Part shown: positions 19,847-62,574 of the stretch, piece by piece
How positions within the stretch are numbered: position 1 is the stretch's first letter
Layout: each line of letters starts with the position of its first letter
Notes under the pieces: model-generated
The model's input: the letters and a program-made list of their open reading frames with translations, nothing else
What the model was told of the DNA's origin: nothing
The model's database searches: none
DNA from: Candidatus Kapaibacterium sp.
Lineage (GTDB): Bacteria; Bacteroidota; Ignavibacteria; Kapaibacteriales; UBA2268
Direction of reading: 5' to 3'
Assembly (NCBI GenBank): GCA_013414795.1
Contig: CP058732.1
Span: 1,161,744-1,225,743 of the forward strand
Length of the DNA stretch: 64,000 nucleotides
Position numbers and translations under genes: made by a program

Positions 19847-19861
19847 TAACCTCCTCGTTGT

Positions 19862-19906
19862 TTTTAAAACAAAAAAGGCTGCCACCCAAGGATTTGGATG
19901 GCAACC
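19862..19906 (-). terminator. rho-independent terminator after the upstream T9SS cargo gene (minus-strand orientation)
   Basis: On the minus strand GGUUGCCAUCCAAAUCCUUGGGUGGCAGCC can form a hairpin (with G-U pairs) followed by UUUUUUGUUUU. It sits in the 20-80 nt gap between the two tandem cargo genes. Confidence 0.5.
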
Positions 19907-38596: not shown

Positions 38597-39328
38597 ATGG
38601 TTACTTTAAATGTTAACGTAGACCATATTGCTACCTTGCGACAAGCACGCGGTGGAAACGAGCCCGACCCAGTGGCTGCTGCGGTAATCTGTGAACTTGC
38701 GGGCGCCAATGGAATAGTGTGCCACTTACGTGAAGACCGACGACACATTCAAGACCGCGATGTTGAATTGCTTCGCCAAGTAGTTTCGACAAAACTCGAC
38801 CTTGAAATGGCTGCTGTGGAGGAAATAATTAACATTGCATTAAGAATTAAGCCCGACCTTGTAACGATTGTTCCCGAAAAGCGTATGGAATTGACAACAG
38901 AAGGTGGGCTCGATGTTGCAAAAGATATTCCTCGATTCAAAGAACTTGTCGCAAGAATGCACCAAAGCGGGATTGAAGTTAGTTTCTTTATTGAACCAGA
39001 ATTAAAGCAAATAGATGCAGTGCTTGAGACTGGAGCGGAAATTGTTGAACTTCATACTGGCGTTTATTCAAATTTGAGGGACATAAAGCAAATCAAATTA
39101 GAACTTGAACGATTGAAAAAAGCGGCAGATTATGCAAAAAATTCTGGTTTGAGAGTTGTTGCTGGTCATGGATTAAATTATCGCAACGTTTTCGACATCT
39201 GTCTTATTTCATCGATTGAGGAATTAAGCATTGGACATTCTATTATTTCCCGAGCCGCTTTCGTTGGTTTGGAGCGGGCAGTTCGGGAAATGATTGATGC
39301 AATAAATTATGCTGTTCTATCAAGGTAG
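38597..39328 (+). CDS. pdxJ: pyridoxine 5'-phosphate synthase
   Basis: [35 protein letters not shown] and GLNYRNV are hallmark PdxJ motifs. Confidence 0.9.
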
Positions 39329-39334
39329 CCTTAA

Positions 39335-41272
39335 ATGTGTGGTATAGTCGGGGTTCTATCATTTAATAAAACTAAACAAAGCAGTATTGTTAACCCCGAC
39401 ATACTCAAAAAAATGTCCGATGTGATTTACCATCGAGGTCCCGATAGCAACGGGATTTGGGTTTCGAAAGAATTCGAGTGTGGTTTTGCTTTTCGCCGTC
39501 TTTCGATTATCGATTTAACTCCCGCTGGCAACCAACCAATGAGTACTTCTGATTTCAGCGTTACAATTGTTTTCAATGGTGAAATCTATAATTATTTGCA
39601 AATCCGCGAGGAATTGAAACAAAAAGGCTATTCGTTTCGCTCTCGAACCGATACCGAGGTAATACTTTACGGATACAAAGAGTGGGGAACATCAATTGTC
39701 AAGAAGTTATCTGGAATGTTTGCTTTTGTTCTTTGGGACGAAGAAAGGAAACTTCTTTTTGGAGCACGCGATAGGCTTGGAAAGAAACCCTTATATTATT
39801 TCCGCAATTCTGATTGCTTTATTTTCGCTTCTGAAATAAAATCATTAATTCTCCACCCTTTGTTGCAAAAAGAAATTAACATTGATGAAATAGGTAATTA
39901 TTTAAATTTTGGGACAAGTTCCAACCGAGCAACGTTGTTCAAAAATATTTTTAAAATACCGCCATCACATTTTTTTACTCTCGATTCAAAGGGAAATTTT
40001 AATATCGAACGCTATTGGAATCCCTTTGTTTTGGGAATAAACACAGAAATTAATGAAAATGATGCAAAGAATGAGATAATCAATCTCCTTCGGGTTGCCA
40101 TAAAAGACAGAATGATGAGCGATGTACCATTTGGTGTATTCTTAAGTGGTGGAATTGATTCGAGTTTGAATGTTGCATTAATGTCCGAGTTGATGGACCG
40201 ACCAGTTGATACTTTTACTGTTGGGTTCAAGGAGTTGCAAAAGTACAATGAATTGGAATATGCCCGCAAAATTGTTGAAATTTTCCGAACAAACCACCAC
40301 GAAATACTTATTGATAGTAAAGATGCATTCGAGGTACTATATGATTTAGTCTGGTACGAAGACGAACCAAATGCCGACCCAGTCTGCATTCCGCTTTATT
40401 TTTTAAGTAAACTTACTCGTTCCTCTGGAACGATTGTCGTACAAGTTGGCGAAGGAAGCGACGAGCAATTTGTTGGATACAACTGGTTGCTTCGTGATTA
40501 CAAATTTTACCACACTTTTTGGAAGTTTTTCGTTTCTTTGCCAAAGTTTTTGCGAAAATCAATTTACGAAACTTCCAAGCCATTTTTAAAAGCAATCAAT
40601 CAGCATCTTCCATTGGATTTTATTCGAAGAGCCACCCAAGACGAGGAATACTATTGGAGCGGAATTTCAATTTTTCCACCCGAAGAGATGAGAGTACTTT
40701 TAAAAAAGAAATTTCAATGGATTGCTGAAAAACCTTGGGAGTATGTTGGCGATTTACTTGCCAATGCAACTAAATTAAGTCAAGGCAATTTGAATTTCTT
40801 GCAATGGGTTCTGTTCGCCGAAATTTCCCAAAGATTGCCCGAACTTCTATTAATGCGAGTGGATAAGATGGGAATGGCAAATAGCATCGAAGCGAGAGTG
40901 CCTTTTCTCGACTACCGTTTAATTGAATTCACTATGTCTTTGCCCGAGAAGTTGAAAGTCCCAAATGGGAAAACAACGAAATATTTGTTGAAAAAAGCTG
41001 TGGAGGGAATTCTTCCCGATGAGATAATTTATCGCAAGAAACAAGGTTTTTGGGCTCCAATTAATGAATGGTTGCGAAACGAGTGGTTCGAATTTGCCTC
41101 CGCCCGCATAAATAATTCTAATTTATTCAAAAACCTATTTGAAGAAAAATATTTGAATTTTATTTTGAATCAACACAAAAATGGCAAAGGGAAGTACGGT
41201 TTTAGAATTTTTACTCTTTTAAATCTTGCTCTTTGGTACGAAAAGTTTTTCGACAATCAAAAAATTGAGTAA
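39335..41272 (+). CDS. asnB: asparagine synthase (glutamine-hydrolysing)
   Basis: 645 aa. The N-terminal MCGIVG provides the Ntn amidotransferase Cys. The PP-loop is SGGIDSS. Confidence 0.9.
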   Translation: MCGIVGVLSFNKTKQSSIVNPDILKKMSDVIYHRGPDSNGIWVSKEFECGFAFRRLSIIDLTPAGNQPMSTSDFSVTIVFNGEIYNYLQIREELKQKGYSFRSRTDTEVILYGYKEWGTSIVKKLSGMFAFVLWDEERKLLFGARDRLGKKPLYYFRNSDCFIFASEIKSLILHPLLQKEINIDEIGNYLNFGTSSNRATLFKNIFKIPPSHFFTLDSKGNFNIERYWNPFVLGINTEINENDAKNEIINLLRVAIKDRMMSDVPFGVFLSGGIDSSLNVALMSELMDRPVDTFTVGFKELQKYNELEYARKIVEIFRTNHHEILIDSKDAFEVLYDLVWYEDEPNADPVCIPLYFLSKLTRSSGTIVVQVGEGSDEQFVGYNWLLRDYKFYHTFWKFFVSLPKFLRKSIYETSKPFLKAINQHLPLDFIRRATQDEEYYWSGISIFPPEEMRVLLKKKFQWIAEKPWEYVGDLLANATKLSQGNLNFLQWVLFAEISQRLPELLLMRVDKMGMANSIEARVPFLDYRLIEFTMSLPEKLKVPNGKTTKYLLKKAVEGILPDEIIYRKKQGFWAPINEWLRNEWFEFASARINNSNLFKNLFEEKYLNFILNQHKNGKGKYGFRIFTLLNLALWYEKFFDNQKIE

Positions 41273-41301
41273 TTCTAATTTTGTTACCTATCTATTTATT
41301 C

Positions 41302-41925
41302 TCAAAAAATATGTTTTATTGTTTGGATAAAGTATTCAACAATATTTGGAAACATAACGATTGTAATGACAAGACCCCAAACTGCTCCCCAAAAATGTGC
41401 TTCGTGGTTGATATTCGTCGAATGATATTTTGAAGCATAAACGCAATAGCCAAGATAGATTAATGCAAAAATAGGTGCGGGAATCCCGATTGGGATAAAA
41501 AACATATATATTCTTGATGTTGGATAGAACAAAATAAAACTGAAAAGAACTCCTGCTATTGCCCCAGAAGCACCAAGCGAGTAATAATTTGGATTGTCTT
41601 TGTTTTTAACAATTGATGGAATCGAAGCAACTATTCCAGCGGTTATGAAAACCAAAGCGAAACGTTCGCTACCAATTGCAAACTCGAGTTGGGGAGCAAA
41701 AAAGTAAAAGGTCAATGCGTTGAATAGTAAATGCATCCAATCGAGGTGAATAAAAATATGTGTAACGATTTGATAGTATTTTCTATAATGAACAGTCGAA
41801 TATGGATTTAGGGAAAACTTTATTAAGATTTGGTTTGGCGAGCCAAACCCAATCAAACTCGAAACAATAATTATTGCCAAAATGGTTAGTGAAACTGGCG
41901 AATCAAGTAAATTCATAAGCAACAA
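41302..41925 (-). CDS. rhomboid-family intramembrane serine protease
   Basis: Six TM helices. The GASGAIAGVLF motif (GxSG) and a downstream His in TM6 are present. Confidence 0.75.
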   Translation of the reverse strand: MLLMNLLDSPVSLTILAIIIVSSLIGFGSPNQILIKFSLNPYSTVHYRKYYQIVTHIFIHLDWMHLLFNALTFYFFAPQLEFAIGSERFALVFITAGIVASIPSIVKNKDNPNYYSLGASGAIAGVLFSFILFYPTSRIYMFFIPIGIPAPIFALIYLGYCVYASKYHSTNINHEAHFWGAVWGLVITIVMFPNIVEYFIQTIKHIF

Positions 41926-41943
41926 ACAAATTTTGTTAGAAAA

Positions 41944-43491
41944 CTAACACTTATGCAAGTTTCTATGCATTATTCTTCTGGATTCGATTAGTCTTTCCTC
42001 CTCGGGCAATGAAATTAAGCGAGAGTTCAAATCTTTGTCGTTTTCGGAAAGGAGAATCTTTGCATAGTAGTCGATAACTTTTGGTGGAAAAATGCCATCC
42101 CGTTCGTAATGATGTCGCTTTTGAAGAAGTTTCTCCGCAGATTCCACGCAACTTTTGCCAAGCACTTCCAAATCCTTTTGTAATGAATTTGGGTCATCCG
42201 TAACTTTGTAATGTTCAGCCAGTTGCAAAGAACGTTGTGGATTGCTCAATCCCCATTCTATTGCTAAAATTAAGCCAGAAAGTATAAGATGTATTAAAGC
42301 ACTACCATCTGGACTTCTAAATTCAATTGTTTGACGGTTGTCTTCATATTCCAACGTTTCGGTTTCTTGTGGATTTATTTTTTTTGCAAGGTTATTTGCT
42401 TTCGTCCAAGCCAAAGGAATTCTAATGAGCGAACTTCTATTCGACGGACTCCAACAAACTTTTGTTGGTGCTTCTTGACCTGGGACTAGGCGGAGGTAGG
42501 AAGCAGCGACTGTATTACCAAATGCAGTTAGGCTTGGTGCATAGTGGCAAAGTCCACCGATAGCCATCAAAGCCTCTTGGGATAAATTACCGCTTGGGTC
42601 TAATAGTATGTTTTTGCCATTCTTTGTCAAAGCAAGATGGAAATGCAGACCATTGCCAGCGTGTCCTGGGTCGATTTTTGGGAAAAATGTTGCAATGGAA
42701 TTGTATTGGTATGCAACGTTTCGAATAATCCAGGTTGAAAGAACAAGGTCGTAGGCAAGTTCTTCAATATCTGTTAAGTGAAATTCAATTTCAACTTGTT
42801 CTGCAGATTTTCCGCTCAATTCGGGAATTTCGCTCTGTATATTTTCAATGTAACCAACTTCGTTGTGAGAGTATTTTATTGAATTTGTAATCTTTGCAAT
42901 AATTGAGGCAATTTCGCTGACGATATGCGTTGTTTTCGCAAAGGGCGGACTGCTATGGTAACCTTGTTGTTTGCCCAAAATATACATTCTTTTGGGCATA
43001 TCGTAAATTAGATAGAATTCCAATTCCCCCAAGGCTTTTAAATTCAAACCAGTTTTGGATTTGAAATATTCATTTGCCCTTGCAAGAATGTTGTCTGGAG
43101 TGAAATTTGCTGGAATTCCATCTTTATCAAAAAAGCGACAGAAGAAATCCAAACTTTTGTTGTCAAATGGATTAATAAATGCACTTTTGTAAATTGGAAC
43201 GACATAGAGGTCGGAAGAACCAACTTCGACAATTCCCTTGAACAAAGAGGAGCCATCAACACGTTCACCGTCGGCAAGTACTGATTCAACTTGGAACTTG
43301 TTTTGTATTGGGATTTGCATTTGACGTGGCTTGCCGTCGGAGGCAACATAATGGAAAGTTATTCTTTCAAGTTGTAAAGTTTGGATAACTTTTAAAAAAT
43401 CTTTTCTTGTCCATTCATTTTTGGGTTTTCCAGTGATTGCTGATATTTGATTTTCTAAAACAAAATATAAATTTGTATTTTGCATAACCAT
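41944..43491 (-). CDS. glutamine synthetase family protein
   Basis: GS catalytic motifs GNGLHFHLAL and NRSSLIRIPL are present, with an N-terminal beta-grasp domain. At 515 aa its length is atypical. Confidence 0.7.
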   Translation of the reverse strand: MVMQNTNLYFVLENQISAITGKPKNEWTRKDFLKVIQTLQLERITFHYVASDGKPRQMQIPIQNKFQVESVLADGERVDGSSLFKGIVEVGSSDLYVVPIYKSAFINPFDNKSLDFFCRFFDKDGIPANFTPDNILARANEYFKSKTGLNLKALGELEFYLIYDMPKRMYILGKQQGYHSSPPFAKTTHIVSEIASIIAKITNSIKYSHNEVGYIENIQSEIPELSGKSAEQVEIEFHLTDIEELAYDLVLSTWIIRNVAYQYNSIATFFPKIDPGHAGNGLHFHLALTKNGKNILLDPSGNLSQEALMAIGGLCHYAPSLTAFGNTVAASYLRLVPGQEAPTKVCWSPSNRSSLIRIPLAWTKANNLAKKINPQETETLEYEDNRQTIEFRSPDGSALIHLILSGLILAIEWGLSNPQRSLQLAEHYKVTDDPNSLQKDLEVLGKSCVESAEKLLQKRHHYERDGIFPPKVIDYYAKILLSENDKDLNSRLISLPEEERLIESRRIMHRNLHKC

Positions 43492-43557: not shown

Positions 43558-43926
43558 ATGGATTTGTTACAAATTCGTGAATATTGCCTTTCTAAACCTT
43601 TTGCTGTCGAGGATTTCCCTTTCGACGAAGAAACACTTGTCTTCAAAGTCTTTGGGAAAATGTTTGCCCTTGTTGATTTGTATTCAATCCCAGCGTGGAT
43701 GAATTTGAAAGTTCCTCCAGAGGATGTGGTTTACCTTGTAGAAAGGTATGACTTTATAAAACCAGGCTATCATATGAACAAAAAGTACTGGATTACTGTC
43801 CAAATCGTCGATAATATCTCGGACAATTTCTTAATGAATTTGATTGACACTTCGTATAACGAGGTGGTCAAAAAGTTGGCCAAATTTAGACAAAAGTTAA
43901 TCGAGGAAAGTTTGAAGAATGGTTAA
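43558..43926 (+). CDS. MmcQ/YjbR-family protein
   Basis: 122 aa. CLSKPFAVEDFPFDEETLVFKVFGKMFAL...KPGYHMNKKYWITV resembles YjbR/MmcQ proteins. Confidence 0.6.
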   Translation: MDLLQIREYCLSKPFAVEDFPFDEETLVFKVFGKMFALVDLYSIPAWMNLKVPPEDVVYLVERYDFIKPGYHMNKKYWITVQIVDNISDNFLMNLIDTSYNEVVKKLAKFRQKLIEESLKNG

Positions 43927-44929
43927 TCAAAGCGAAAGAGAATATTTAGCAGAAAAAATAAAAGAACATTTGGGCTGGAAGGTTAATCCTCTGCGAATTA
44001 AAATATTTACAGATACATCTGATTGGATGCGAATTGCCAGAGGAGACATTATTAGATTGAACTGTGGCGACTATCTTGTAAAGGGCAATATGCGAGAGCC
44101 AAGGTTTGGAATTGATGACCAGCCGAAATATTGGGTTTTCAATGCAATTGATTTAAAAGATAATTCAGAGAAAATAATTAAAACGGTATTTCACGAGGAA
44201 TTTTATGCTCATATTGGATTTTTAAGGATTCGTTGCTACCGAAACCCCGAAAAAGAAGGCGAAGTTCTGAAAATCGTTCAAGGGGACAAAAGATTTATGC
44301 AAGGATTTGTGTGTTTTGATGAAAAGGGCAATGCTGTGCGAATAATTGATTTCATCAAAGGTACCTCCTTTTTTAATTTTGTTCCAATGATAAATAAGAA
44401 CCACGAGGAGTATTTCTTCGAGGATTTGCCATATATTCTTTGGAAATTGAAAGAATCGTTCGAAGCGATTAATTTTTTGCACGAACACAAACTGTGTCAC
44501 GGCGATATACGAAACGACCATATTATAGTTGAAACCGAAACTGGGCTTTATCGTTGGATTGACTTTGACCTTATGCAAGATGTTTCCGACTTCGACCTTT
44601 GGAGTTGTGGTAATATTGTTTCTTACGCTGTTGCCAAGGGTTTGAAAACATTCGACCAAGTGCTTAAAGGCAATGAGTTTCCAAATGAAGTTAAATTAAG
44701 TTTGACCGCGGAGGATGCCTCGGCATTTTACAATTATCGAATTATGAATCTTAAAAAGTTATATCCTTATATCCCAATAAAATTGAACAAAATACTTCTT
44801 CATTTTACGATGAAGCCTATTGCTTTTTACAACAATATCCGTGAATTTTTGGAGGATTACACGGAAATGCTCGAAACAGAATTTCCAATAAAGGATAAAA
44901 CAAATATTGTTAAAAGAGATGAGAAATGA
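43919..44929 (+). CDS. protein-kinase-like fold protein of uncertain activity
   Basis: The catalytic-loop-like motif LCHGDIRNDHIIV and a DFG-like WIDFDL are present. It overlaps the upstream gene by 8 nt and the downstream HK start by ATGA. Confidence 0.5.
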   Translation: MVNQSEREYLAEKIKEHLGWKVNPLRIKIFTDTSDWMRIARGDIIRLNCGDYLVKGNMREPRFGIDDQPKYWVFNAIDLKDNSEKIIKTVFHEEFYAHIGFLRIRCYRNPEKEGEVLKIVQGDKRFMQGFVCFDEKGNAVRIIDFIKGTSFFNFVPMINKNHEEYFFEDLPYILWKLKESFEAINFLHEHKLCHGDIRNDHIIVETETGLYRWIDFDLMQDVSDFDLWSCGNIVSYAVAKGLKTFDQVLKGNEFPNEVKLSLTAEDASAFYNYRIMNLKKLYPYIPIKLNKILLHFTMKPIAFYNNIREFLEDYTEMLETEFPIKDKTNIVKRDEK

Positions 44930-46755
44930 ATGCAATTATCATCGGTGGTGGTAAAGGTTGCTATGCGATATTAAAGTTACTTCGAGAGAAGCCAATCAAG
45001 GAATTGAATTTGCAAGTGCTTGGTGTTGTCGATATCAATCCAGAAGCAGAAGGTTTGAAATATGCTAAAGAATTGGGTTTGAAAACATTTTCAAACTATA
45101 AAGAAGCATTGAATTCTTTGGATGTAGAGGTTGTAATTGAATTAACTGGTAACAACGAATTCGTGAAAAAATTAAAACAAGAGTTAAGCCCAGAAATAAA
45201 ATTAATAGAACACTCGATTGCTCATATTTTCTGGGATTTAATGTATGCACACGAGGAACTCGATAAAAAAATAGAGGATTTACAAAGGCTTGAAAAAGTT
45301 ATCGAAAACGATAATGTTTTCTTGAAGTCAATCTTCGATAGTTTTCAAGATTTAACAGTAGTTATGGATTTAGAACAGCGAATTACTCGGGCAAACAAAG
45401 CCTTTTGCGAATTTGTGGGTTTACCAGAAGAGAAAGTGATTGGGCAAAAATGTTATCATTTATTGGAGATTGCTGAAATAAATTGTGATAAAAAAGGTTT
45501 GGAAGAAATAATTAATTACATCAAAGAAACAAAAAAACCGCATACGATGGTTCATTACTCTGCACAGCCAAAAGAATCTTATTGGGAAGTAACTCGTTCT
45601 CCTATTTTTGATGTACAAGGCGAAGTGAAGTTTATTCTATCTAACTGGCATAGGATAACAGAACTTGTGTATTTAAAGCGGGAAGTTGAAACGCTTGAAC
45701 AAAAATTGAAGAGTTTTATTAATAATGCCCAAGACTGGATTAGTATGAAAAACCTTAATGGTGAATACATTCTTGTAAATCCAGTTATTGCAAAAGCATT
45801 TGGAAAGCAACCAGAGGACTTTATTGGGAAAAAACCAGAAGATGTTTTACCAATGAAAATTGCACAAACCGTGAAAGCACACGACAGCGAAGTTCTTCGC
45901 ACGGGGAAAGCAATCCTTTACGACGAAACTATTACGCTTAACGGGGAAGAACATTATTTTCGTATGCTTCGGTTTCCACTTACCGATTCCCAAGGTAAAA
46001 TCATCGGAACTTGTACGATTGGACGGGATGCAACGAACGAAATTCAATTAATGGAGAAATTGGTGCAAAGCGAAAAACTTGTTGCTCTTGGAAAACTTGC
46101 CGCAGGCGTTGCCCACGAAATCAATAATCCGCTTACTGGAATTCTTTCTTATGCAGAGAGTATTTCAGAAGAATTGGACAAGGACAATCCATTGCAAGAA
46201 GACATTGCAATTATTATTCGTGAAACGCTACGCTGTCGGGATATTGTTCGAAATCTCCTCGATTTTGCAAAGCAAAGCACACCCAAATTCGAAATAGTAA
46301 ATCCAAATTCAATTATTAAACAATCGTTAGATTTGATCAGCCGTTTACCACAGTTTAAGGATATTGAAATCGAAGTCCTTCTCGATGAAAAAGTTCCCCA
46401 GATAAAAGCCGATGCAAAGCAAATACAGCAAGTCATACTCAATTTCTTGATAAACGCTGCTGATGCTATGAAATACAAGGGAAAGATAACTATATCGACC
46501 GAATATTATCGCCAGCAAAAGAAGTGTATCATTTCGGTTGAGGATACTGGTCCTGGTATCCCAGAAAATCTAATGGACAAAATTTTCGAGCCATTTTTCT
46601 CGACCAAAAGTACAAGTGGTTTAGGACTGGCTGTGAGTTGGGGAATTATCGAGCGACACCACGGAACAATTGAGGTCGACACTGCACCATCGGGGGGTGC
46701 AATATTTAGGATACTTCTCCCAGCATATTTTGAAATTGTTGATAAATTGGAATAA
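44926..46755 (+). CDS. cytoplasmic sensor histidine kinase: N-terminal Rossmann (Gfo/Idh/MocA-like NAD(P)-binding) domain, two PAS domains, HisKA, HATPase_c
   Basis: N-terminal IIIGGGKGCYAILKLL...LQVLGVVDINPEAEGLKYAKELGL...SNYKEAL...VEVVIELTGNNEF. The H-box is VAHEINNPLTGI, and the ATP lid has DTGPGIP and GLGLAV. No TM segments. Confidence 0.85.
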   Translation: MNAIIIGGGKGCYAILKLLREKPIKELNLQVLGVVDINPEAEGLKYAKELGLKTFSNYKEALNSLDVEVVIELTGNNEFVKKLKQELSPEIKLIEHSIAHIFWDLMYAHEELDKKIEDLQRLEKVIENDNVFLKSIFDSFQDLTVVMDLEQRITRANKAFCEFVGLPEEKVIGQKCYHLLEIAEINCDKKGLEEIINYIKETKKPHTMVHYSAQPKESYWEVTRSPIFDVQGEVKFILSNWHRITELVYLKREVETLEQKLKSFINNAQDWISMKNLNGEYILVNPVIAKAFGKQPEDFIGKKPEDVLPMKIAQTVKAHDSEVLRTGKAILYDETITLNGEEHYFRMLRFPLTDSQGKIIGTCTIGRDATNEIQLMEKLVQSEKLVALGKLAAGVAHEINNPLTGILSYAESISEELDKDNPLQEDIAIIIRETLRCRDIVRNLLDFAKQSTPKFEIVNPNSIIKQSLDLISRLPQFKDIEIEVLLDEKVPQIKADAKQIQQVILNFLINAADAMKYKGKITISTEYYRQQKKCIISVEDTGPGIPENLMDKIFEPFFSTKSTSGLGLAVSWGIIERHHGTIEVDTAPSGGAIFRILLPAYFEIVDKLE

Positions 46756-46757
46756 AT

Positions 46758-47534
46758 ATGGAAAATAGTAAAATCAAAATTTTAGTTATAGACGATGAGC
46801 AAATTGTACTCGATAGTATAAAACGTCTTTTGAAAAAGGACGAAAATTATATTATCGAAACTGCACTTTCAGCAATGGAAGGTTTAGCAAAAGTTGATGA
46901 GTTCAAACCAAATGTCATTCTCACTGATTTGATGATGCCAGAAATTGATGGCTTGGAATTGCTGAAAAAAGTTAAAGAAAAGGACGAAAAGATTTTTGTG
47001 ATAATGATTACTGGCTATGCAACAATTAATACAGCACTTCAAGCGATGCAACTTGGGGCTTTCGACTACATTGCAAAGCCATTTACTCGTGAAGAGTTGA
47101 GACGAGTCATTGAAAGGGCTGCAAGTTTGGTTGAAGTGCAAAAAACTTCTCAAATTAAGTCTCCATTGCAAAATGAAATTATTGGAAATATTCAAGGAAT
47201 TGGTCAATATTCTTGGTTGATGATGAATGACGAAGGGCTTGTCGTTTTGGGTGTCGAAAGAGCTTTTCTTTATTCAGTGGGAAAAATACAAACTGTGTAT
47301 TTGCCATCTGCTGGGGACGAAATTAGGCAAGGTAGCGTTTTTTTCCAAATATTTTCTTCGGATTTGCGTACCCAATCGATTTATTCTCCTCTTTCGGGTA
47401 CTGTTGTCGAAGTAAATGAAAAAGTTTTGGCTAATCCAGAACTCGCAGCACTCGACCCTTATGGCGAAGGTTGGTTGATTAAAATAAAACCAAGCAACTT
47501 TGAAGATGATATGAAAACACTTGGATTACTTTGA
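46758..47534 (+). CDS. response regulator: CheY-like receiver domain fused to a glycine-cleavage-H-protein-like (lipoyl-domain fold) C-terminal domain lacking the lipoyl-lysine
   Basis: The receiver has KILVIDDE...ILTDLMMPEIDG...KPF. The C-terminus SIYSPLSGTVVEVNEKVLANPELAALDPYGEGWLIKIKPSNFEDDMKTL aligns with GcvH (...VKAASDIYAPVSGEVVEVN...SPELVNSDPYGEGWIFKIK), but Leu replaces the lipoylated Lys. Confidence 0.8.
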   Translation: MENSKIKILVIDDEQIVLDSIKRLLKKDENYIIETALSAMEGLAKVDEFKPNVILTDLMMPEIDGLELLKKVKEKDEKIFVIMITGYATINTALQAMQLGAFDYIAKPFTREELRRVIERAASLVEVQKTSQIKSPLQNEIIGNIQGIGQYSWLMMNDEGLVVLGVERAFLYSVGKIQTVYLPSAGDEIRQGSVFFQIFSSDLRTQSIYSPLSGTVVEVNEKVLANPELAALDPYGEGWLIKIKPSNFEDDMKTLGLL

Positions 47535-48585
47535 TTTTATGAAAGAAGCAATACTTTATGAAGTAATAGATGACAATACTAAAGAAGTTGAATGTAAACT
47601 TTGCAGTCATTATTGTAAGATAAAAAATAACTATGGTGGAATATGCCGAGTGCGTTTCAATCACAATGGAGTTCTCTATTCCTATACTTATGGAAAGGTA
47701 GATGGGGTTGCAATCGACCCAATCGAAAAAAAGCCATTCTATCATTTTAAACCAAAGAGCAGAGTCTTGTCGTTCGGAACCCCTGGATGCAATTTCAAAT
47801 GTGCAAATTGTCAAAATAGTTATCTTTCACAATCAATTAAATTGAAGCCAGACCATTTGCTTGTCCAAGAAACTATACCACCAGAGGAGATTGTAAGACT
47901 TGCAGAAAAGTATGATGTCGATGGAATTTCGTATACATATTCTGAACCAACAATTTTCTTTGAATATGCAAGGGATATCATCTTGAAATGCAAAGAAAAT
48001 CCAGGAACCAGGAATTTAGTACATCTTTTCGTTTCGAATGGATATTTCAGCAAGGAAATGCTACAAATTGTTGTCGAAGAACAACTACTTGATGCTATTA
48101 ATATAGACTTAAAATTTATTGACGACCAAAAATATTTAAAGATAACTGGTGGACATCTTAAGCCTGTTTTGGATAGTATTGAACGGGTATTTTCGGCAAA
48201 CATTCATATGGAGATAATCAATCTTGTCATTCCTGGAGAAAACGATACCGACGAGTCTTTCTCGAAAATTTCTGAATTTATTGCAAATTTGTCGAAAGAT
48301 ATTCCTTTGCATTTCAGCAGATTTTATCCTCAATACAAAATGACAACCAAGACGCCGACGCCCTATTCGACATTAATCCGTGCAAAGGAAATTGCGGAGT
48401 CCTACGGTTTAAACTTCGTTTATATTGGAAACACTGATATTCCAAATGCTGAAAATACATATTGTCCCAATTGCAAATTTTTAGTTGTTGAACGTGAAAG
48501 ATATTTAACAAATGTAAATTATTTTGTGGAAAATGGGAAAGCAAAATGTCCAAAATGTTTAGAAACATTGCCTATAGTTGTTTAG
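47521..48585 (+). CDS. AmmeMemoRadiSam-system-type radical SAM enzyme (PFL-activase-like)
   Basis: The N-terminal AILYEVIDDNTKEVECKLCSHYCKIKNNYGGICRVRFNHNGVLY has a Cys-rich zinc-ribbon-like segment. The radical SAM cluster motif GTPGCNFKCANCQNSYLS (Cx3Cx2C) is present. Confidence 0.8.
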   Translation: MDYFDFMKEAILYEVIDDNTKEVECKLCSHYCKIKNNYGGICRVRFNHNGVLYSYTYGKVDGVAIDPIEKKPFYHFKPKSRVLSFGTPGCNFKCANCQNSYLSQSIKLKPDHLLVQETIPPEEIVRLAEKYDVDGISYTYSEPTIFFEYARDIILKCKENPGTRNLVHLFVSNGYFSKEMLQIVVEEQLLDAINIDLKFIDDQKYLKITGGHLKPVLDSIERVFSANIHMEIINLVIPGENDTDESFSKISEFIANLSKDIPLHFSRFYPQYKMTTKTPTPYSTLIRAKEIAESYGLNFVYIGNTDIPNAENTYCPNCKFLVVERERYLTNVNYFVENGKAKCPKCLETLPIVV

Positions 48586-49733
48586 TGATTGTTCTGTTTT
48601 ACCTTTTGATGGTTAGTAAAAGCGGAACATTATATGCCCAATGGCCTGCGATGAAGACAGATGCAGATAGTCTTGTGCGGTTGGGTGCAGACTACATTTA
48701 CAATATGGAATTTGATAAAGCCGAACAGTGCTTCAAGCAAGTTATAGAAAAATATCCAGAACTTCCCGCTGGATATTTTTTGAATGCAATGGTGGATTGG
48801 TGGAAAATTGTTGCATTTCGCAATTCCCAAGAATTCGACAAGTCTTTTCTTGAAAAAATTGACCGAACAATCCAAGTTTGCGACAGAATACTCGATACTA
48901 ATGAATTCGAATTGAGTGCTTTGTTTTTCAAAGGCGGTGCGATTGGATATCGAGGTCGATATCACGCAATTCGTGAAAACTGGTTTCGTGCTGCCAACGA
49001 TGGTTATTCGGGTTTTAAAATATTGACGAAATGTCTTGAAATTGCCCCAAACAATTACGACATTATGCTTGGTACTGGTGTTTATAACTATTTCGCCGAG
49101 GTTCTTCCTTCGGAAAATCCCGCTTTAAAACCATTGATGCTTTTTCTTCCCAAAGGTGATAGAAAACTTGGAATATTACAACTTCAAGCCTCGGCAAAAT
49201 ATGCTCGATATGCAAATGTCGAGGCAAAATTGGTGTTGTTGCAAATTTTTAACGATTTCGAAAAAGATTACTATTCTGCATACACAATTGCAAAGGAATT
49301 AGTTGAGAAATATCCCAACAATCCAGTTTTTCAGCGATATTATGGTAGGACGCTTGTCTCGCTCTACTATCTTGACGAATGGGAAAAGCATTGGAAAATG
49401 ATACTTAATTGGTACGAGCAAAAAAAGCCTGGTTTCGATGTTGCAACTGCCAGAGAGGCAATGTATTACATTGGCAGTGCTTTGTTTGAACAAGGACGCT
49501 ACGACGAGGCTTTATCATATTTCTACAAATGTGATGAATTTTCACGTAAGTTAGATAAGAATGGTCCTTCGGCTTTTATGATTTACCTAAACTTAAAAGT
49601 TGGAAAAATATACGACCTTCAAGGTAAACGAAATTATGCAATTATGCAATATAACAAGGTCCTTTCTTGGAAAAATTATCGAGATTCCCACGAACAAGCA
49701 AAAAAATACCTCCAAACTCCATATACAAGGTAG
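48555..49733 (+). CDS. secreted TPR-repeat protein
   Basis: A signal-like N-terminus (IAYSCLVIVLFYLLMVSKSGTLYAQ) is followed by TPR-like helical repeats. The start is uncertain (48546, 48555 or 48609), and it overlaps the rSAM gene end. Confidence 0.6.
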   Translation: MFRNIAYSCLVIVLFYLLMVSKSGTLYAQWPAMKTDADSLVRLGADYIYNMEFDKAEQCFKQVIEKYPELPAGYFLNAMVDWWKIVAFRNSQEFDKSFLEKIDRTIQVCDRILDTNEFELSALFFKGGAIGYRGRYHAIRENWFRAANDGYSGFKILTKCLEIAPNNYDIMLGTGVYNYFAEVLPSENPALKPLMLFLPKGDRKLGILQLQASAKYARYANVEAKLVLLQIFNDFEKDYYSAYTIAKELVEKYPNNPVFQRYYGRTLVSLYYLDEWEKHWKMILNWYEQKKPGFDVATAREAMYYIGSALFEQGRYDEALSYFYKCDEFSRKLDKNGPSAFMIYLNLKVGKIYDLQGKRNYAIMQYNKVLSWKNYRDSHEQAKKYLQTPYTR

Positions 49734-49770
49734 ATTTTTTAATTTTGAAATTTTGCAAAATTTTTTTCCG

Positions 49771-51012
49771 ATGGTAAGACTTTTACTATGCTTTTTGATT
49801 TTGTGTATTAGTTGCACGACCGAAGTTTTTCCCAAGGTTGGCTACCAACAAAAAATTCTTCTTGGTATTGATGTTTTAGTTCGTGATGATTTTAAAATAC
49901 TTTATGGGAAAAGAGTTGGGTTGCTAACGAATTCGGCAAGCCGTTCTTCATCGAAAAAAATGACTGTGGAGTATTTCGTAAACAATCCCAAATTTACTTT
50001 AAATGCAATTTTCACCCCAGAACACGGATTTTTTACAACCGTTCCTGCTGGCAAGTATGTTCCCGACGATAGCCTATATGGGGTTCCAATCTTTTCGCTT
50101 TATGGAAATAATCGAAAACCAACTCCCTACCAAATGTCTCTGGTTGATATCGTTGTTGTAGATTTGCAAGATATAGGAGTACGTTCCTATACTTTTATTA
50201 GCACTCTTTACAAAGTTATGGAAGCCTGTGCAGATGCAAATATTCCGCTCGTTATACTGGACCGTCCCAATCCGCTTGGTGGAAATCTTGTTGATGGCAA
50301 TGTGCTTGAACCGCAATGGGCTTCATTTGTGGGAATTGTTCCAATTCCATATTTGCACGGCTGTACTATTGGCGAAATTGCTTTTATGATAAATGAAGAA
50401 GGCTGGCTGAAATCCAACGGAGTAACGAAAAAGTGTGATTTAACTATTGTTAAGATGGAAAACTGGAAGCGACAAATGAATTGGGAGGATACCAATTTGG
50501 AATGGTTCCAAACTTCACCCAACATAAAGAGTGTTGACGCTATACGTGGGATTGCTATGTTTGGTGTGCTTGGCGAGTTGGGACTTTTTAATTTAGGTGT
50601 TGGTACTGACTTGCCCTTCCAAGTTTTTTCAATTCGAAATGTGAATGTGAAAAAGTTGGAAAAGTTAGTTTCTGAATTAAAGTTTGATGGCGTTGCTTTC
50701 ATAAATAAAGAGAAACAAAAGCATTTAGAAAAAGAGCACAATAGTTTTTTGATTAAGTTTGCAAAAAACAAAGAATGTAAATACTATACTTTTGGTATGA
50801 CTTTGTTGTTTGAAATTCGGAAGGCTTTTCCACATTTATTTTCTTATGAACGACTTAAGTCGAGAAGAATAGAAATGTTCAAAAAAGTAACTGGAACAAG
50901 CGTTTTGTTCGATAGTTTAATTCAAGGAGATGAAACCGAATACTTTAATTATTTAAACAAAGGATTGGATGAATTTTTAAAACTTCGCTCTAAATATCTA
51001 TTATATAAATAG
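49771..51012 (+). CDS. DUF1343-family protein (NamZ-like exo-beta-N-acetylmuramidase family)
   Basis: The signal or lipoprotein start is MVRLLLCFLILCISC. The family motifs are DIGVRSYTFISTL and LVILDRPNPLGG. The track ORF starts at 49600 inside the previous gene, so 49771 is preferred. Confidence 0.7.
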   Translation: MVRLLLCFLILCISCTTEVFPKVGYQQKILLGIDVLVRDDFKILYGKRVGLLTNSASRSSSKKMTVEYFVNNPKFTLNAIFTPEHGFFTTVPAGKYVPDDSLYGVPIFSLYGNNRKPTPYQMSLVDIVVVDLQDIGVRSYTFISTLYKVMEACADANIPLVILDRPNPLGGNLVDGNVLEPQWASFVGIVPIPYLHGCTIGEIAFMINEEGWLKSNGVTKKCDLTIVKMENWKRQMNWEDTNLEWFQTSPNIKSVDAIRGIAMFGVLGELGLFNLGVGTDLPFQVFSIRNVNVKKLEKLVSELKFDGVAFINKEKQKHLEKEHNSFLIKFAKNKECKYYTFGMTLLFEIRKAFPHLFSYERLKSRRIEMFKKVTGTSVLFDSLIQGDETEYFNYLNKGLDEFLKLRSKYLLYK

Positions 51013-51020
51013 GGATAGCA

Positions 51021-53174
51021 TTGGCTAAACTTTGGCAAGTTAGAAGGGTTCCGTTAAAAATTACAATTAACAAAATTGTTGAAAAAATTTACAATGCGTT
51101 TCATCCAAAAAGTGAACAAGATTTTTACAAAAAATACTTTGTAGATTTACAAAATTTAAGACCTTTTAAAAAACTCGAAACTGGTTATTTCGGAATAATA
51201 GATAAATCTTTGCTGGTTGAAAAGAAAGACTTGATTGAATTTCTGGGAAATCAAATTCTTGAACATAAATTTAATCTGCTTGGTACGGGTTGGATAAATC
51301 GTAACCACATTCAGAACTTTGAAGAAATAATAAATATTCTGCCAGAATTCTATCGAGAAAATTCACGGAAACTATTTGGCTATCTTAACGCAAGAAATTA
51401 CAAACCAATAAATTATTGGAATGACCCGAAAAGTGGTTACCTTTGGGAACCAAAGTTTTACAAAAAAATTAGTATTCTGCTCGGTTCCGATATAAAACAA
51501 CCTTGGGAACTTGGGAGAATGCAACATTTACCAATTTTGGCTTATTGCTATTTTCTTTTCCAAAACGATGTGGTTCACTCGAGGAAATTTTTAGATGAGT
51601 TCCAAAGCCAAATCATTGATTTCATTGCAACAAATCCTGTGGGATATACTGTTCAATGGCTTTCTCCAATGGATGTTGGCATTCGTGTTTCAAATTGGCT
51701 TTTTGCATACGATTTGTTTTCCGATTTGGGAGCCGAATTTGACCAGAACTTCTTGGATGTTTTTATGCAAAGTATTTTCGAACACATTGAATTTGTTCTG
51801 GATAATTTAGAATGGTCTGGTGGTCTTCGAGGTAACCACTATTTTGCAAACATAACTTCTTTGCTATTTGCTTGTTCTTACTTACCATTTAGTGACTATT
51901 CGACCTCAATTTTGGCATTTGCGATAAACGAACTTATATCCGAAACGCTTTATCAATTTCTTCCCGATGGCGGAAACTTCGAGGCTTCTACCTATTATCA
52001 TATCCAAGTTGTTGAAATGTTGCTTGTTTCTTTATACCTTATTCAATCTTATGAACGAAGCCGACTTTACGACTTGAACGAGTTTTTGAAATTGAAAGGG
52101 AATATAATATTTGGAAAAAGAAATTTTAAACCATCCAAATTTTCAATCGACTTGGTTAATAATCGAATTTTGTATCCAAATGAATTTTTAGAACGATTGT
52201 ATAGAGTTGTAAAATTCACTCATTCGATTTTCCAAACAAACGACAAATTCATTCAAATTGGCGATAGCGACAGTGGTTTTTTCCTTCGCCCGTATTACTT
52301 TTTTGATAATTTTAAAGTTAATGGCGAAATTTTCGAGGAAGTTCAAAGAAGACCTTTCCTCTACGAGTTAATAAATTCATTGAGTGAAAACAATTGCAAA
52401 GGTAAATCTCTTGTCTTGAAAAATTCATTGAAACATTCTTTCAATCTACCAAAAAGTGAAATAGTTATTTTTCGTAAAGTATTTCCCTTCGTTGATTTTG
52501 GTTTGTTTGTGATTAAATCTGCTGAATTCGAGTTGTTTCTCCGTTGTGGTAGCATTGGACAACAAGGAAAAGGTGGGCACTCCCACAACGACCAGTTGTC
52601 TTTTGTGTTGTGTGTAAAAGGAAAGGAATTTTTTGTTGACCCAGGAATGTACTGTTATACTTGTTCAGAAAAAGAGAGAAATAAATATCGTTCCGTGCAT
52701 ATGCATAACACGCTTGCTATTGAGGATGAAGAACAAAATCTATGGAAAGTTGGGGACACAGAAAATCTTTTTTGGATTTACAAACATCGCACAAAAGCTA
52801 AGGCATCTAAAATATTTGATGATTTAATCAAAATGCAACATTTTGCATATACAAAGCCACACATTAGAATAATATCTTATGAACCCGAGCGAATTGTTTT
52901 CACAGACACTTTAAATTCGAAAAAAGATAAAATTCTTTACTTCCATCTTCATCCAAATGTTGATATTACAATTAAGAATGATATTTTTATATTAACTAAT
53001 GAGCAAGTAACAATCAAACTTCGACTTCCAGAAGCAAGTTTTGAAGTAAAGAATTATGATTATTGCCCACAGTATGGGGTAAAATTAAGAGCAAGTAAGA
53101 TTGCAGTTCGTTCCAATGAGCGTTGTTTACAATGGTTTATTGATTTTGGCATTGAAAACGAAGAACCCACCTAA
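51021..53174 (+). CDS. heparinase II/III-like family protein (no signal peptide)
   Basis: 717 aa. The C-terminal region GSIGQQGKGGHSHNDQLSFVLCVKGKEFFVDPGMY resembles the heparinase II/III-like GHxHxD motif. The N-terminal part is alpha-helical toroid-like. Confidence 0.55.
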   Translation: MAKLWQVRRVPLKITINKIVEKIYNAFHPKSEQDFYKKYFVDLQNLRPFKKLETGYFGIIDKSLLVEKKDLIEFLGNQILEHKFNLLGTGWINRNHIQNFEEIINILPEFYRENSRKLFGYLNARNYKPINYWNDPKSGYLWEPKFYKKISILLGSDIKQPWELGRMQHLPILAYCYFLFQNDVVHSRKFLDEFQSQIIDFIATNPVGYTVQWLSPMDVGIRVSNWLFAYDLFSDLGAEFDQNFLDVFMQSIFEHIEFVLDNLEWSGGLRGNHYFANITSLLFACSYLPFSDYSTSILAFAINELISETLYQFLPDGGNFEASTYYHIQVVEMLLVSLYLIQSYERSRLYDLNEFLKLKGNIIFGKRNFKPSKFSIDLVNNRILYPNEFLERLYRVVKFTHSIFQTNDKFIQIGDSDSGFFLRPYYFFDNFKVNGEIFEEVQRRPFLYELINSLSENNCKGKSLVLKNSLKHSFNLPKSEIVIFRKVFPFVDFGLFVIKSAEFELFLRCGSIGQQGKGGHSHNDQLSFVLCVKGKEFFVDPGMYCYTCSEKERNKYRSVHMHNTLAIEDEEQNLWKVGDTENLFWIYKHRTKAKASKIFDDLIKMQHFAYTKPHIRIISYEPERIVFTDTLNSKKDKILYFHLHPNVDITIKNDIFILTNEQVTIKLRLPEASFEVKNYDYCPQYGVKLRASKIAVRSNERCLQWFIDFGIENEEPT

Positions 53175-53185
53175 ACGGTGGGTTC
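53163..53185. terminator. hairpin (possible bidirectional terminator) between convergent genes
   Basis: GAACCCACC-TAAAC-GGTGGGTTC perfect 9-bp stem that overlaps the stop codon of the heparinase-like gene. The U-tract is weak. Confidence 0.4.
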
Positions 53186-53214
53186 CTCTAATTGAGTGAA
53201 GTAATTTAAATTAA

Positions 53215-54501
53215 TTAAACCCAACCACGAAGTTTTACAGCCTCGGCAACTCTTGAAATAGCAATCATATATGCAGCGTCACGCATATAGACACCCTGCT
53301 TAATCGCAAGGTCCAGCACTGAATGATAGGCGCTTGTCATCTTTTGGTCGAGTTTGGTTAAAACTTCTTCCTTCGTCCAGAAATAGTTCATATTGCATTG
53401 AACTTGTTCGAAATAGGAACAGGTAACTCCACCAGCGTTGCACAAGAAGTCTGGAATGACGTGAATGTTCTTTGCCTTGAGTACCTCGTCTGCTTCTGGT
53501 GTTGTTGGACCATTGGCACCTTCGGCAATAATCTTTACAGTGGGTTTAATCAATTGCACTGTATCTTTGTTGATTTGGTTTTCCAAAGCGGCGGGGACCA
53601 AAATATCCACTTCTTGCTCAATCCAAGCATTGCCAGGAAGCAATTCAAAGCCAAGTTCTTTGGCTTTTTCTTTATCGATTTCCCCAAATTTGTTGGTAAT
53701 GCTCTTGAGTTGTTCGAAATTAATACCGTCTTTCTTTAGGAAGGTAATTGCCCGCTGTTCTTTTGGATCCCAGGAAGATACAGCAATGGCGGTTCCGCCC
53801 AACTTTGTATACAATTCAAGAGCGTATTGGCTAACATTACCAAAACCTTGAAAACTAGCCGTTGTCTTTTTAATATCAATTCCTAAATGTTTTAGGGCTT
53901 CGCGAACGGTGTAAATTACACCATAGCCTGTTGCCTCGGTACGCCCGAGAGAACCGCCCAGACCTAATGGCTTACCAGTGATGAATCCAGGGGCTTTAAT
54001 TCCAGTGATTTTCTCATATTCATCCAGCATCCAAATCATATGTTGTGCGTTGGTCATAACGTCTGGTGCTGGAACGTCTTGCAATGGTCCGACGTTTCGA
54101 GCAATTTGGCGAACCCAGCCACGGCAAATTAGTTCTTGCTCTCGGAGTGAAAGATGGTGTGGGTCGCAGACAACTCCGCCCTTGCCACCACCCAAGGGAA
54201 TGTCGACCACAGCAGTTTTCCAGGTCATCCACATTGCAAGAGCACGCACAGTATCGATTGTTTCGTTGGGGTGGAAACGAATTCCGCCTTTCGCTGGTCC
54301 GCGAGCATCACTGTGTTGAACGCGGAAGCCACGGAAGACTTTGTAAGTACCATCATCCATTCGAACTGGAATGTTGAATTGGTATTCTCGGTCTGGCCAA
54401 CGCAGTAGATCACGTGTTGCTTGGTCAAGACCTAACTTATCGGCAACAGCATCAAATTGTCGCTGTGCCATATGAAATGGATTGAAACCCTCTGTTGACA
54501 T
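53215..54501 (-). CDS. gdhA: NAD(P)-specific glutamate dehydrogenase
   Basis: 428 aa. The Glu/Leu/Phe/Val dehydrogenase signature region is GGGKGG...K, and the Rossmann motif is GFGNVSQ. GC content (~50 %) is conspicuously higher than in the neighbouring genes. Confidence 0.9.
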   Translation of the reverse strand: MSTEGFNPFHMAQRQFDAVADKLGLDQATRDLLRWPDREYQFNIPVRMDDGTYKVFRGFRVQHSDARGPAKGGIRFHPNETIDTVRALAMWMTWKTAVVDIPLGGGKGGVVCDPHHLSLREQELICRGWVRQIARNVGPLQDVPAPDVMTNAQHMIWMLDEYEKITGIKAPGFITGKPLGLGGSLGRTEATGYGVIYTVREALKHLGIDIKKTTASFQGFGNVSQYALELYTKLGGTAIAVSSWDPKEQRAITFLKKDGINFEQLKSITNKFGEIDKEKAKELGFELLPGNAWIEQEVDILVPAALENQINKDTVQLIKPTVKIIAEGANGPTTPEADEVLKAKNIHVIPDFLCNAGGVTCSYFEQVQCNMNYFWTKEEVLTKLDQKMTSAYHSVLDLAIKQGVYMRDAAYMIAISRVAEAVKLRGWV

Positions 54502-54537
54502 AGTAATTTCTCCGTTAATTGTTAATACAAATCAAAT

Positions 54538-54558
54538 AACTTCGAATTAATCGAAGTT
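54538..54558. promoter_or_regulatory. perfect 8-bp inverted repeat AACTTCGA-N5-TCGAAGTT about 37 nt upstream of gdhA, a candidate operator
   Basis: Read directly from the sequence. It lies in the 303-bp AT-rich divergent gdhA/ilvE intergenic region. Confidence 0.35.
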
Positions 54559-54804
54559 AAAAGTGCAAATTAAGAAAAAAAGTTTTCCTCAAATAGATAG
54601 AATTTCAATATTTATGAGTTCTGTAAAAGTTTGTTAATTTTTGTGTTGTTTTTGATTTCTCTTAAAATGCTTTATGTTTGAAAATCTCTTGATATATATT
54701 CAAATCATCTACTCAACATTTCTAAATACAATTTTAATTATTACTTCTGTATTTAGTTTTTTTTTTGTAAAATTATTTTTCGTAAATATTTCTTTGGTGA
54801 AAAA

Positions 54805-62547: not shown

Positions 62548-62574
62548 ATTCCACAATCCATTTCGAGGTAACTA

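Follow-up and report, generated by a model that had tools for sequence, protein, structure and literature searches.

A probable three-gene signalling module with a lysine-less GcvH-like response regulator in Candidatus Kapaibacterium

Introduction

The output domains of response regulators define what bacterial signalling can control, and a six-gene string in Candidatus Kapaibacterium sp. raises the question of what might be controlled by a regulator whose output resembles GcvH, the glycine cleavage system H protein. The string lies in a stretch of 64,000 nt (assembly GCA_013414795.1, contig CP058732.1, positions 1,161,744–1,225,743 of the forward strand), referred to here as the window. It consists of genes for a YjbR/MmcQ-family protein (g1), an atypical protein-kinase-fold protein (g2), a sensor histidine kinase (HK; g3), a response regulator with a receiver (REC) and a GcvH-like domain (g4), a radical S-adenosylmethionine (rSAM) enzyme of the AmmeMemoRadiSam type (g5), and a tetratricopeptide repeat (TPR) protein (g6). 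An open reading frame (ORF) listing returned all six on the plus strand where an earlier note, made from the sequence alone, had placed them. That note had suggested a redox-sensing two-component system coupled to rSAM modification of the GcvH-like domain. Are the six genes one such system?

Our comparison points to a different division of the string. With moderate confidence, we read g2, g3, and g4 as a three-gene signalling module conserved across phyla, to which g1, g5, and g6 were added in Kapaibacteria and with which they are probably co-transcribed. The module is apparently widespread, with members in Kapaibacteria, Zixibacteria, an Abyssobacteria metagenome-assembled genome (MAG), and unclassified bins, and it is apparently undescribed; our literature searches found no paper on the receiver–GcvH architecture.

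Results

Gene Neighborhoods of REC–GcvH-Like Regulators

The sample comprises 19 distinct loci (L numbers below) encoding a full REC–GcvH-like protein, five from Kapaibacteria lineages and 14 from others, the neighbors of which were compared by tblastn of the window proteins and by all-against-all clustering of ORFs. The genome scan for relatives of the regulator used receiver-domain peptide patterns and yielded a full regulator in only about 8 of 80 loci. The metagenome scan used the GcvH-like domain; one of its patterns, DPYGxGWL, also matches ordinary GcvH, and only L090, L091, and L092 were useful. A regulator identical to g4 is encoded in GCA_037478895.1, also labeled Candidatus Kapaibacterium sp. 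at NCBI.

Two gene families keep company with the regulator. A histidine kinase gene adjoins it in 17 of the 19 loci and a gene for the kinase-like protein in 12. Outside Kapaibacteria the kinase-like proteins are 49–59% identical to g2. Clustering the ORFs of 17 loci recovered the HK in 15 and the kinase-like gene in 10, with every other recurrent neighbor in at most three; L175 and L176 add two loci with both. No other gene family occurs in more than four of the 19. The three genes are adjacent and co-directional in L007, L008, L009, L088, L090, and L091, from Zixibacteria and unclassified bins, at tblastn identities of 57–59% for g2, 48–58% for full-length homologues of g3, and 53–58% for g4. 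Two further loci, L010 and L012 (the latter the Abyssobacteria MAG), retain g2 at 49–51% and g4 at 36–38% identity, and the HK between these homologues is a different one, of a membrane HAMP type without the N-terminal Rossmann-like domain of g3.

The remaining genes are distributed otherwise. Genes for the rSAM enzyme and the TPR protein follow the regulator in four of the five Kapaibacteria lineages (the window, L171, L175, and L176) and in none of the 14 other loci; in the fifth lineage, L170 of the Kapaibacteriales, the regulator is followed by genes for glutaredoxin and Cpn10. The YjbR gene stands upstream of the kinase-like gene only in window-type loci, L170, L175, and L176, and is a Kapaibacteria-specific addition to the module. 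Conservation of the full six-gene arrangement in relatives, which the earlier note had made a test of its model, thus fails outside Kapaibacteria.

A Response Regulator with a GcvH-Like Output Lacking the Lipoyl Lysine

The regulator g4 (46758–47534, plus strand, 258 aa) begins with a receiver domain (46779–47111; Response_reg PF00072, E 5.6e-31) in which D12, D13, D57, T85, and K107, the acidic pocket and phospho-acceptor set, are invariant in 24 sequences. The C-terminal domain (47205–47516) scores as GCV_H, as the earlier note had required of it, at E 1.4e-21 and 77.1 bits against a PF01597 cutoff of 22.2. It falls below the cutoffs of the GcvH equivalog models (TIGR00527, 70.9 versus 115.85; NF002270, 75.4 versus 117). 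Among solved structures its profile matches 13 GcvH chains, with a lowest E of 5.9e-15. In the AlphaFold2 (AF2) model the two domains are independent of each other, and the linker between them is flexible, with pLDDT <50 at residues 131–145.

The GcvH core motifs HxW, PxSG, and PYGxGW are kept, and only the hairpin that carries the lipoyl lysine in GcvH is altered. In its place g4 has D202-L203-R204 (47361–47369, from the family alignment and GcvH structures), together with a one-residue insertion. The position of the lysine, which in the alignment to 3ift and 2ka7 is taken by Asp or Leu, corresponds to D202 or L203 within an FS-x-D-L-R motif that is invariant in 24 family members; it is also occupied by residues other than Lys in five divergent REC–GcvH-like subfamilies, aligned with an E. 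coli reference sequence. Because D-L-R stands where the lipoyl lysine would be, the GcvH-like domain, as judged from its sequence, cannot be lipoylated, in agreement with the first description of this output as a lipoyl-domain fold closed to lipoylation. The protein thus has the fold and most core motifs of GcvH in common with the PF01597 proteins and differs from them in the missing lysine, the sub-equivalog scores, and the fusion to a receiver.

Among response regulators, g4 resembles the non-DNA-binding RssB and CheY types in having a full phospho-acceptor pocket and no DNA-binding motif. An output without such a motif would therefore have to act through protein contacts. Unlike the RssB- and CheY-type systems, this one has a GcvH-fold output and a kinase-fold gene as a fixed third partner. 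The REC–GcvH-like family numbers about 1,400 database matches at E ≤ 0.001, and the named ones are bacterial, from several poorly studied phyla. Public labels for proteins of this type are "response regulator," "CheY-like/GcvH," and, wrongly, "Glycine cleavage system H protein," the last also in the NCBI record of this organism; REC–GcvH-like regulators are thus sometimes mislabeled.

Tandem pairs of REC–GcvH-like genes occur at L092:5349-7326 and L014:9998-11982. The second gene of each pair encodes a protein of 386–389 aa that has a hydrophobic helix at its N terminus and is extended at its C terminus, possibly a form of the regulator anchored in the membrane.

An Isolated Family of Atypical Kinase-Fold Proteins

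The product of g2 (43919–44929, plus strand, 336 aa) scores 23.5 bits against the Pkinase model, below the Pfam cutoff of 31.7. Its AF2 model (pLDDT 86.6, pTM 0.85) nevertheless has the fold of a protein kinase, and the top Foldseek matches in the PDB are all kinase domains (ASK1, Staphylococcus Stk1, CK1, and Abl; probability 1.00, TM 0.4–0.6), bearing out the early description of an atypical kinase-fold protein. Invariant in 27 homologues are K88 (the β3 Lys), E93, H194-G-D196, D215-F-D217, and the motif D-F-D-x-W-S-x-G-N (W228). The β3 Lys, αC Glu, catalytic Asp, and DFG Asp of a Hanks-type fold are therefore all present (K88, E93, D196, and D215). At the level of sequence the protein departs from the Hanks type: the Pkinase score is below the gathering threshold, the catalytic-loop Asn is absent, and the glycine-rich loop is degenerate, with residues 61–68 modeled at pLDDT <50. 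The equivalent of the catalytic loop reads H194-G-D-I-R-N-D-H201 (44498–44521), and the invariant H201 replaces the expected Asn in the 27 homologues.

Hanks-type Ser/Thr kinases cross-talk with two-component systems, as Stk1/PrkC does with WalR-type regulators. With these kinases g2 shares the eukaryotic-like fold, Stk1 being among its top structural matches, and the linkage of its gene to an HK and a regulator. It is unlike them in being a single domain, about 330 aa long, that lacks both a sensor and a membrane segment, as well as in its HGDIRNDH loop, degenerate glycine-rich loop, sub-threshold Pkinase score, and tiny, isolated family. That family has 559 matches at E ≤ 1e-3 among 1.84 billion representatives, and its small size and isolation suit a partner reserved for one system better than a general kinase.

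Three natural fusions involve the kinase-like domain. In P0364 (L177:8001-11094) it is joined to a receiver, and the gene adjoins those of a Cys-rich HK, another regulator, and NamZ; in P0374 it is joined to HisKA and HATPase_c, and in P0509 to a carbon-nitrogen hydrolase. All are singletons, so their support for the pairing is weak. The module is also preceded by a carbon-nitrogen hydrolase gene in L012, and L010 begins with a similar N-terminal ORF.

The Histidine Kinase and the Question of a Redox Cue

The sensor kinase g3 (44926–46755, plus strand, 609 aa) contains two PAS domains (45319–45663 and 45706–46041, Pfam), HisKA (46087–46275; PF00512, 58.3 bits) with the H-box AAGVAHEINNPL (VAHEINNPL), and HATPase_c (46411–46725; PF02518, 85.7 bits). 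Its best NCBIfam similarity is to AtoS (294 bits). A hydropathy scan found no membrane-like segment in g1–g5, and g3 is accordingly like the cytoplasmic PAS histidine kinases of the NtrB/AtoS type, with HisKA/HATPase_c and PAS sensors. It is unlike them in its N-terminal Rossmann-like domain (44926–45240). Of the earlier claim that this is a cytoplasmic PAS kinase with a dinucleotide-binding sensor, the cytoplasmic location and the PAS domains stand, and the NAD domain is reduced to a sub-threshold Rossmann similarity.

Residues 1–110 form a conserved domain with an invariant GxGxGC, D36, E-L-T-G, and H96. It is weakly matched by NAD(P)-binding domains and by nothing else: GFO_IDH_MocA at 18.3–21.4 bits against a cutoff of 24, NAD_binding_3, DapB_N, and DmpF (1nvm_B) at E 0.0064, all below threshold. 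Dinucleotide binding by this domain is a reasonable lead from the sequence, short of a finding.

These matches invite the reading that the N-terminal domain reports the NAD(P)H/NAD(P)+ ratio and that the output controls respiratory or electron-transfer complexes, a proposal compatible with the wiring of the three-gene module. It draws further support from distant subfamilies, the genes of which adjoin redox complexes: DsrMKJOP-like in L010 and L012, a TAT Fe-S protein with NrfD in L092, and a NiFe hydrogenase in L011. The curated thresholds are missed by every Rossmann match, however, the glycine-rich loop is GxGxG rather than GxGxxG, the kinases of L010, L012, and L171 lack the domain, and loci of the main family have no consistent redox neighbors. 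We consider a redox or energy-state sensor possible but doubtful. As to the cue itself, the Rossmann-like domain and the redox complexes near distant subfamilies suggest redox or NAD(H).

The block in L010 and L012 (L010:2288-7237, L012:2225-7210) has five genes, encoding a NarI-like protein, an HdrD-like Fe-S protein, a 127-aa protein, a TAT Fe-S protein, and NrfD. The TAT Fe-S and NrfD genes at L092:7924-10020 and those of the four-subunit NiFe hydrogenase at L011:4526-8250 each lie beside a divergent REC–GcvH-like gene. The kinase of L171 (L171:6487-8013, 508 aa) aligns with g3 from residue 110. In L175, a 2-thiouracil desulfurase + DUF1722 gene (L175:5106-6047) stands between the kinase-like gene and the HK.

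Possible H-Protein Mimicry and Nitrogen Metabolism

A regulator that keeps the core motifs of GcvH and changes only the hairpin could be a phosphorylation-controlled mimic of the H protein, docking on the P-, T-, or L-protein or on lipoate-handling enzymes and tuning glycine, one-carbon, or nitrogen metabolism, with the kinase-like protein as an accessory sensor. Genes of nitrogen assimilation do surround the module in the window. A glutamine synthetase gene (41944–43491, minus strand, 515 aa; Gln-synt_N and Gln-synt_C) is divergent from g1, and with it PdxJ, asparagine synthase, glutamate dehydrogenase, and class IV aminotransferase genes cluster around the module (38597-43491 and 53215-55875). 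Glutamine synthetase is likewise adjacent and divergent in L170 and L176, and in L089, outside Kapaibacteria, it lies 3.5 kb from the regulator along with ornithine carbamoyltransferase and an amino-acid kinase. A nitrogen cue for the module is hinted at by these genes.

Against this, gcvT, gcvP, lpd, and lipoate ligase were seen in none of the loci covered by gene calls or Pfam scans. A glutamine synthetase gene lies near the regulator in just four of the 19 loci, three of them in Kapaibacteria, and the enzyme was rejected as a conserved partner on that count. Moreover, the hairpin is the main recognition element for the partners of GcvH and is the most altered part of the domain. The mimic model as a whole is unlikely on this evidence. 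Further along the window (60074-63906) are genes for arginine decarboxylase and an ACT-domain amino-acid kinase.

The Radical SAM Enzyme as a Member of a Broad Family

The start of g5 was taken at ATG 47539 (47539–48585, plus strand), because the resulting 348-aa product fits the homologues of 346–348 aa and the NCBI gene call (L002). The protein matches TIGR04337 over nearly the full model (positions 9–330 of 349) with 303.2 bits against a cutoff of 220, and PF04055 with E 6e-19. Its CX3CX2C motif, CNFKCANC, occupies residues 84–91 (47788–47811), and additional CxxC pairs lie at both ends, as in the AmmeMemoRadiSam rSAM enzymes. The rSAM models matched are only TIGR04337, glycyl-radical-enzyme activases, MoaA, and NrdG; no lipoyl-synthase-type model was among the matches in the NCBIfam scan. 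The activase models fall far short (TIGR02493, PFL-AE, 49.8 versus 231.75; TIGR02494, 43.9 versus 174.35).

To our knowledge, the function of the AmmeMemoRadiSam system is still unproven. The system, in which the AMMECR1 and Memo genes are adjacent or fused, corresponds to the "Memo-Ammecr1 systems" that a passage of PMC7159879 cites from Burroughs et al. 2019. Passing mentions were all that our literature search turned up. Neither AMMECR1, nor Memo, nor a glycyl-radical enzyme was found in the 64-kb window by Pfam searches of ORFs from about 140 aa upward and Pfam calls on flanking genes, so g5 lacks the three-component context within that distance. Both the assignment of g5 to this family and its description as an orphan are upheld, and an ordinary pyruvate formate-lyase activase beside a glycyl-radical enzyme, which the earlier note had named as the outcome that would overturn its view, did not emerge. 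In Kapaibacteria, in place of AMMECR1 and Memo, the partner of the enzyme is the secreted TPR protein.

Could g5 nonetheless modify the GcvH-like domain of g4, or use it as a carrier, much as lipoyl synthase acts on the H protein, with the six genes forming one redox-sensing unit? The 4-nt gap between g4 and g5, the lack of a promoter-like box before g5 or g6, the regulator–rSAM–TPR order kept in four Kapaibacteria lineages at regulator identities down to 67%, and the absence of AMMECR1 and Memo partners from the window speak for it. Yet the adjacency is missing in L170 and in all 14 regulator loci of other lineages. The regulator has about 1,400 homologues and g5 more than 7,900, many of them archaeal, with those of Micrarchaeota 50–55% identical; this breadth and the archaeal identity argue for a substrate shared with archaea. 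Close relatives of the enzyme (55–61% identity) sit after glycosyltransferases in L173 and after a GNAT acetyltransferase in L174, a Kapabacteria genome, and neither a regulator, a TPR protein, AMMECR1, nor Memo is encoded near them. No lipoyl-synthase-type model matches g5, and the hairpin that a lipoyl-type enzyme would target has no lysine in g4.

We therefore regard this model, the one put forward in the earlier note, as very unlikely: the adjacency is confined to Kapaibacteria, and the g5 family is far broader and found in unrelated contexts. Because the enzyme is so conserved between archaea and bacteria, its substrate is most likely common to both, and a regulator confined to a few bacterial phyla is, from the distribution of sequences, an unlikely substrate. 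As part of the reading we favor, and with the same moderate confidence, g5 is taken to be a general-purpose member of a very broad family, here a passenger or lineage-specific accessory and not a dedicated GcvH-like modifier. For annotation, AmmeMemoRadiSam-type rSAM genes beside such regulators are no basis for postulating a dedicated modification system. An anti-phage defense identity for the locus was rejected, as PADLOC models gave only generic receiver and kinase similarities over partial domains (E ≥ 2.7e-8).

The TPR and YjbR Proteins and the Downstream Genes

The last gene of the string, g6 (48546–49733, plus strand, 395 aa), encodes a protein matched by TPR models, with an N-terminal signal-like segment (Kyte-Doolittle hydropathy 1.96 over residues 5–23), consistent with its proposed secretion. 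It always travels with g5 in Kapaibacteria, being 66% identical in L171 and present also in L175 and L176. At the other end of the string, g1 (43558–43926, plus strand, 122 aa) is YjbR-like, as first described (PF04237, E 3.6e-26).

Behind g6, and outside the signalling module, lie genes for NamZ (49771–51012) and a heparinase II/III-like protein (51021–53174), both on the plus strand and identified by Pfam. This block also follows the rSAM–TPR pair in L171, L175, and L176. The L171 locus has neither the YjbR nor the kinase-like gene and retains those for the regulator, the rSAM enzyme, the TPR protein, NamZ, and the heparinase-like protein.

The possibility that a diverged g6 follows the regulator in L089 and L172 was considered and rejected, since the gene there shows no similarity to g6 and belongs to a separate zinc-ribbon, transposase-like family. 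Members of that family, of 381–391 aa with an InsA-type N-terminal zinc ribbon, are encoded right after the regulator at L087:9027-10172, L089:8793-9968, and L172:8825-9970, the L089 and L172 copies being 68% identical. This protein may be a transposase-like partner that has been domesticated, or else an insertion element that favors certain targets.

Junctions and Transcription

In the sequence itself, g1 and g2 overlap by 8 nt and g2 and g3 by 4 nt (ATGA), g3 and g4 are separated by 2 nt, and g5 and g6 overlap by 40 nt. Between g4 and g5 there is a 4-nt gap from ATG 47539, and the 14-nt overlap claimed at first is obtained only with a TTG start at 47521; the other junctions and the six ORFs are as originally described. 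Such tight co-directional packing is ordinary in operons and is by itself not beyond chance; it is the identities of the genes that carry the observation.

A sigma-70 promoter scan was uninformative (47 matches versus 42 expected), and the Bacteroidetes-type -7 box, TAnnTTTG, was used instead. This box is enriched in the window (114 matches versus 86 ± 8.6 expected) and precedes the first gene of many co-directional strings by 7–37 nt; examples are at 1097, 2394, 17235, 24018, 38570, 49740, 57088, and 60050. The enrichment and placement suggest that this Kapaibacterium uses Bacteroidetes-like promoters.

A candidate box, TAAATTTG (43468–43475, plus strand), precedes g1 by 82 nt and falls within the divergent glutamine synthetase gene, at its 5' end; the distance is atypical, and its assignment to g1 is tentative. 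No TAnnTTTG box was found before g2, g3, g4, g5, or g6 in the scan of the window, and none before the rSAM or TPR gene in any locus scanned. The next candidate, TAATTTTG (49740–49747, plus strand), stands 23 nt before NamZ and probably marks the end of the g1–g6 transcription unit; equivalent boxes precede NamZ by 31 nt in L171 and 24 nt in L176. The terminator scan detected no plus-strand terminator-like site between g1 and 53160, where a GC-rich hairpin (53160–53188) closes the gene string after the NamZ–heparinase-like pair. The simplest reading of these sequence signals is that g1–g6 probably form a single transcript, with the NamZ–heparinase-like pair promoted separately. The single transcript proposed earlier is thus plausible.

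Discussion

How might the three conserved genes work together? Because g3 carries two PAS domains and a Rossmann-like N-terminal domain, it would be expected to sense an intracellular cue from its place in the cytoplasm, and it would then phosphorylate D57 of the g4 receiver. The lysine-less GcvH-fold output of g4 would serve as a protein-binding module and not as a cofactor carrier. The fixed partner in the module, g2, keeps the catalytic Lys, Glu, and Asp and the DF-D residues, and it is most likely an effector or co-regulator with which the GcvH-like domain makes contact; we infer that it is the likeliest partner because its gene stays with the regulator even where the sensor part of the HK has been exchanged (L010 and L012). 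A His-Asp signal would in this way be passed on to a Ser/Thr-type kinase or a nucleotide-binding switch.

A more specific form of this relay can be put forward as a speculation that we hold tentatively. Phosphorylation of the receiver would free the lysine-less H-protein mimic, which would dock onto a g2-type atypical kinase or pseudokinase and switch it, converting His-Asp signalling into Ser/Thr phosphorylation or a nucleotide-dependent switch. Such a mechanism would be at work in Kapaibacteria, Ignavibacteria, Bacteroidota, Zixibacteria, and Abyssobacteria and might signal the redox or nitrogen state.

Several observations weigh against the three-gene module and the role given in it to g2. 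Seven of the 19 loci (L011, L014, L087, L089, L092, L171, and L172) have no kinase-like gene beside the regulator, and the pairing of the kinase-like protein with the GcvH-like domain is drawn from gene adjacency and one singleton fusion. With His in place of the catalytic Asn and a degenerate glycine-rich loop modeled at low confidence, g2 could be a pseudokinase. The NAD match of g3 is sub-threshold, and its GxGxG loop is one residue shorter than GxGxxG. Finally, the regulator-to-rSAM junction is 4–13 nt in Kapaibacteria, is kept down to 67% regulator identity, and has no promoter-like box within it, so a lineage-specific functional link between regulator and rSAM enzyme may exist there.

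If the proposed module is real, a GcvH fold without its cofactor lysine, serving as the output of a response regulator, would be a new case of a metabolic carrier domain recruited for signalling. Its fixed pairing with an isolated kinase-fold family would likewise be a rare instance of hard-wired coupling between His-Asp and Hanks-type signalling.

Other Genes in the Window

Elsewhere in the window, a 1,677-aa protein (3627-8660) has two GT4/GT1 glycosyltransferase modules and, at its C terminus, TPR repeats. Three large proteins (9938-14539, 18036-19904, and 19925-22729) have Ig-like/ASH-type repeats, one of them also a VWA domain, and end in Por_Secre_tail sorting domains, which mark them as type IX secretion cargo. 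Another gene encodes a 1,439-aa BcrAD_BadFG + DUF2229 protein resembling CoA-enzyme activases (25954-30273) and is followed by that of an AIR-synthase-related protein.

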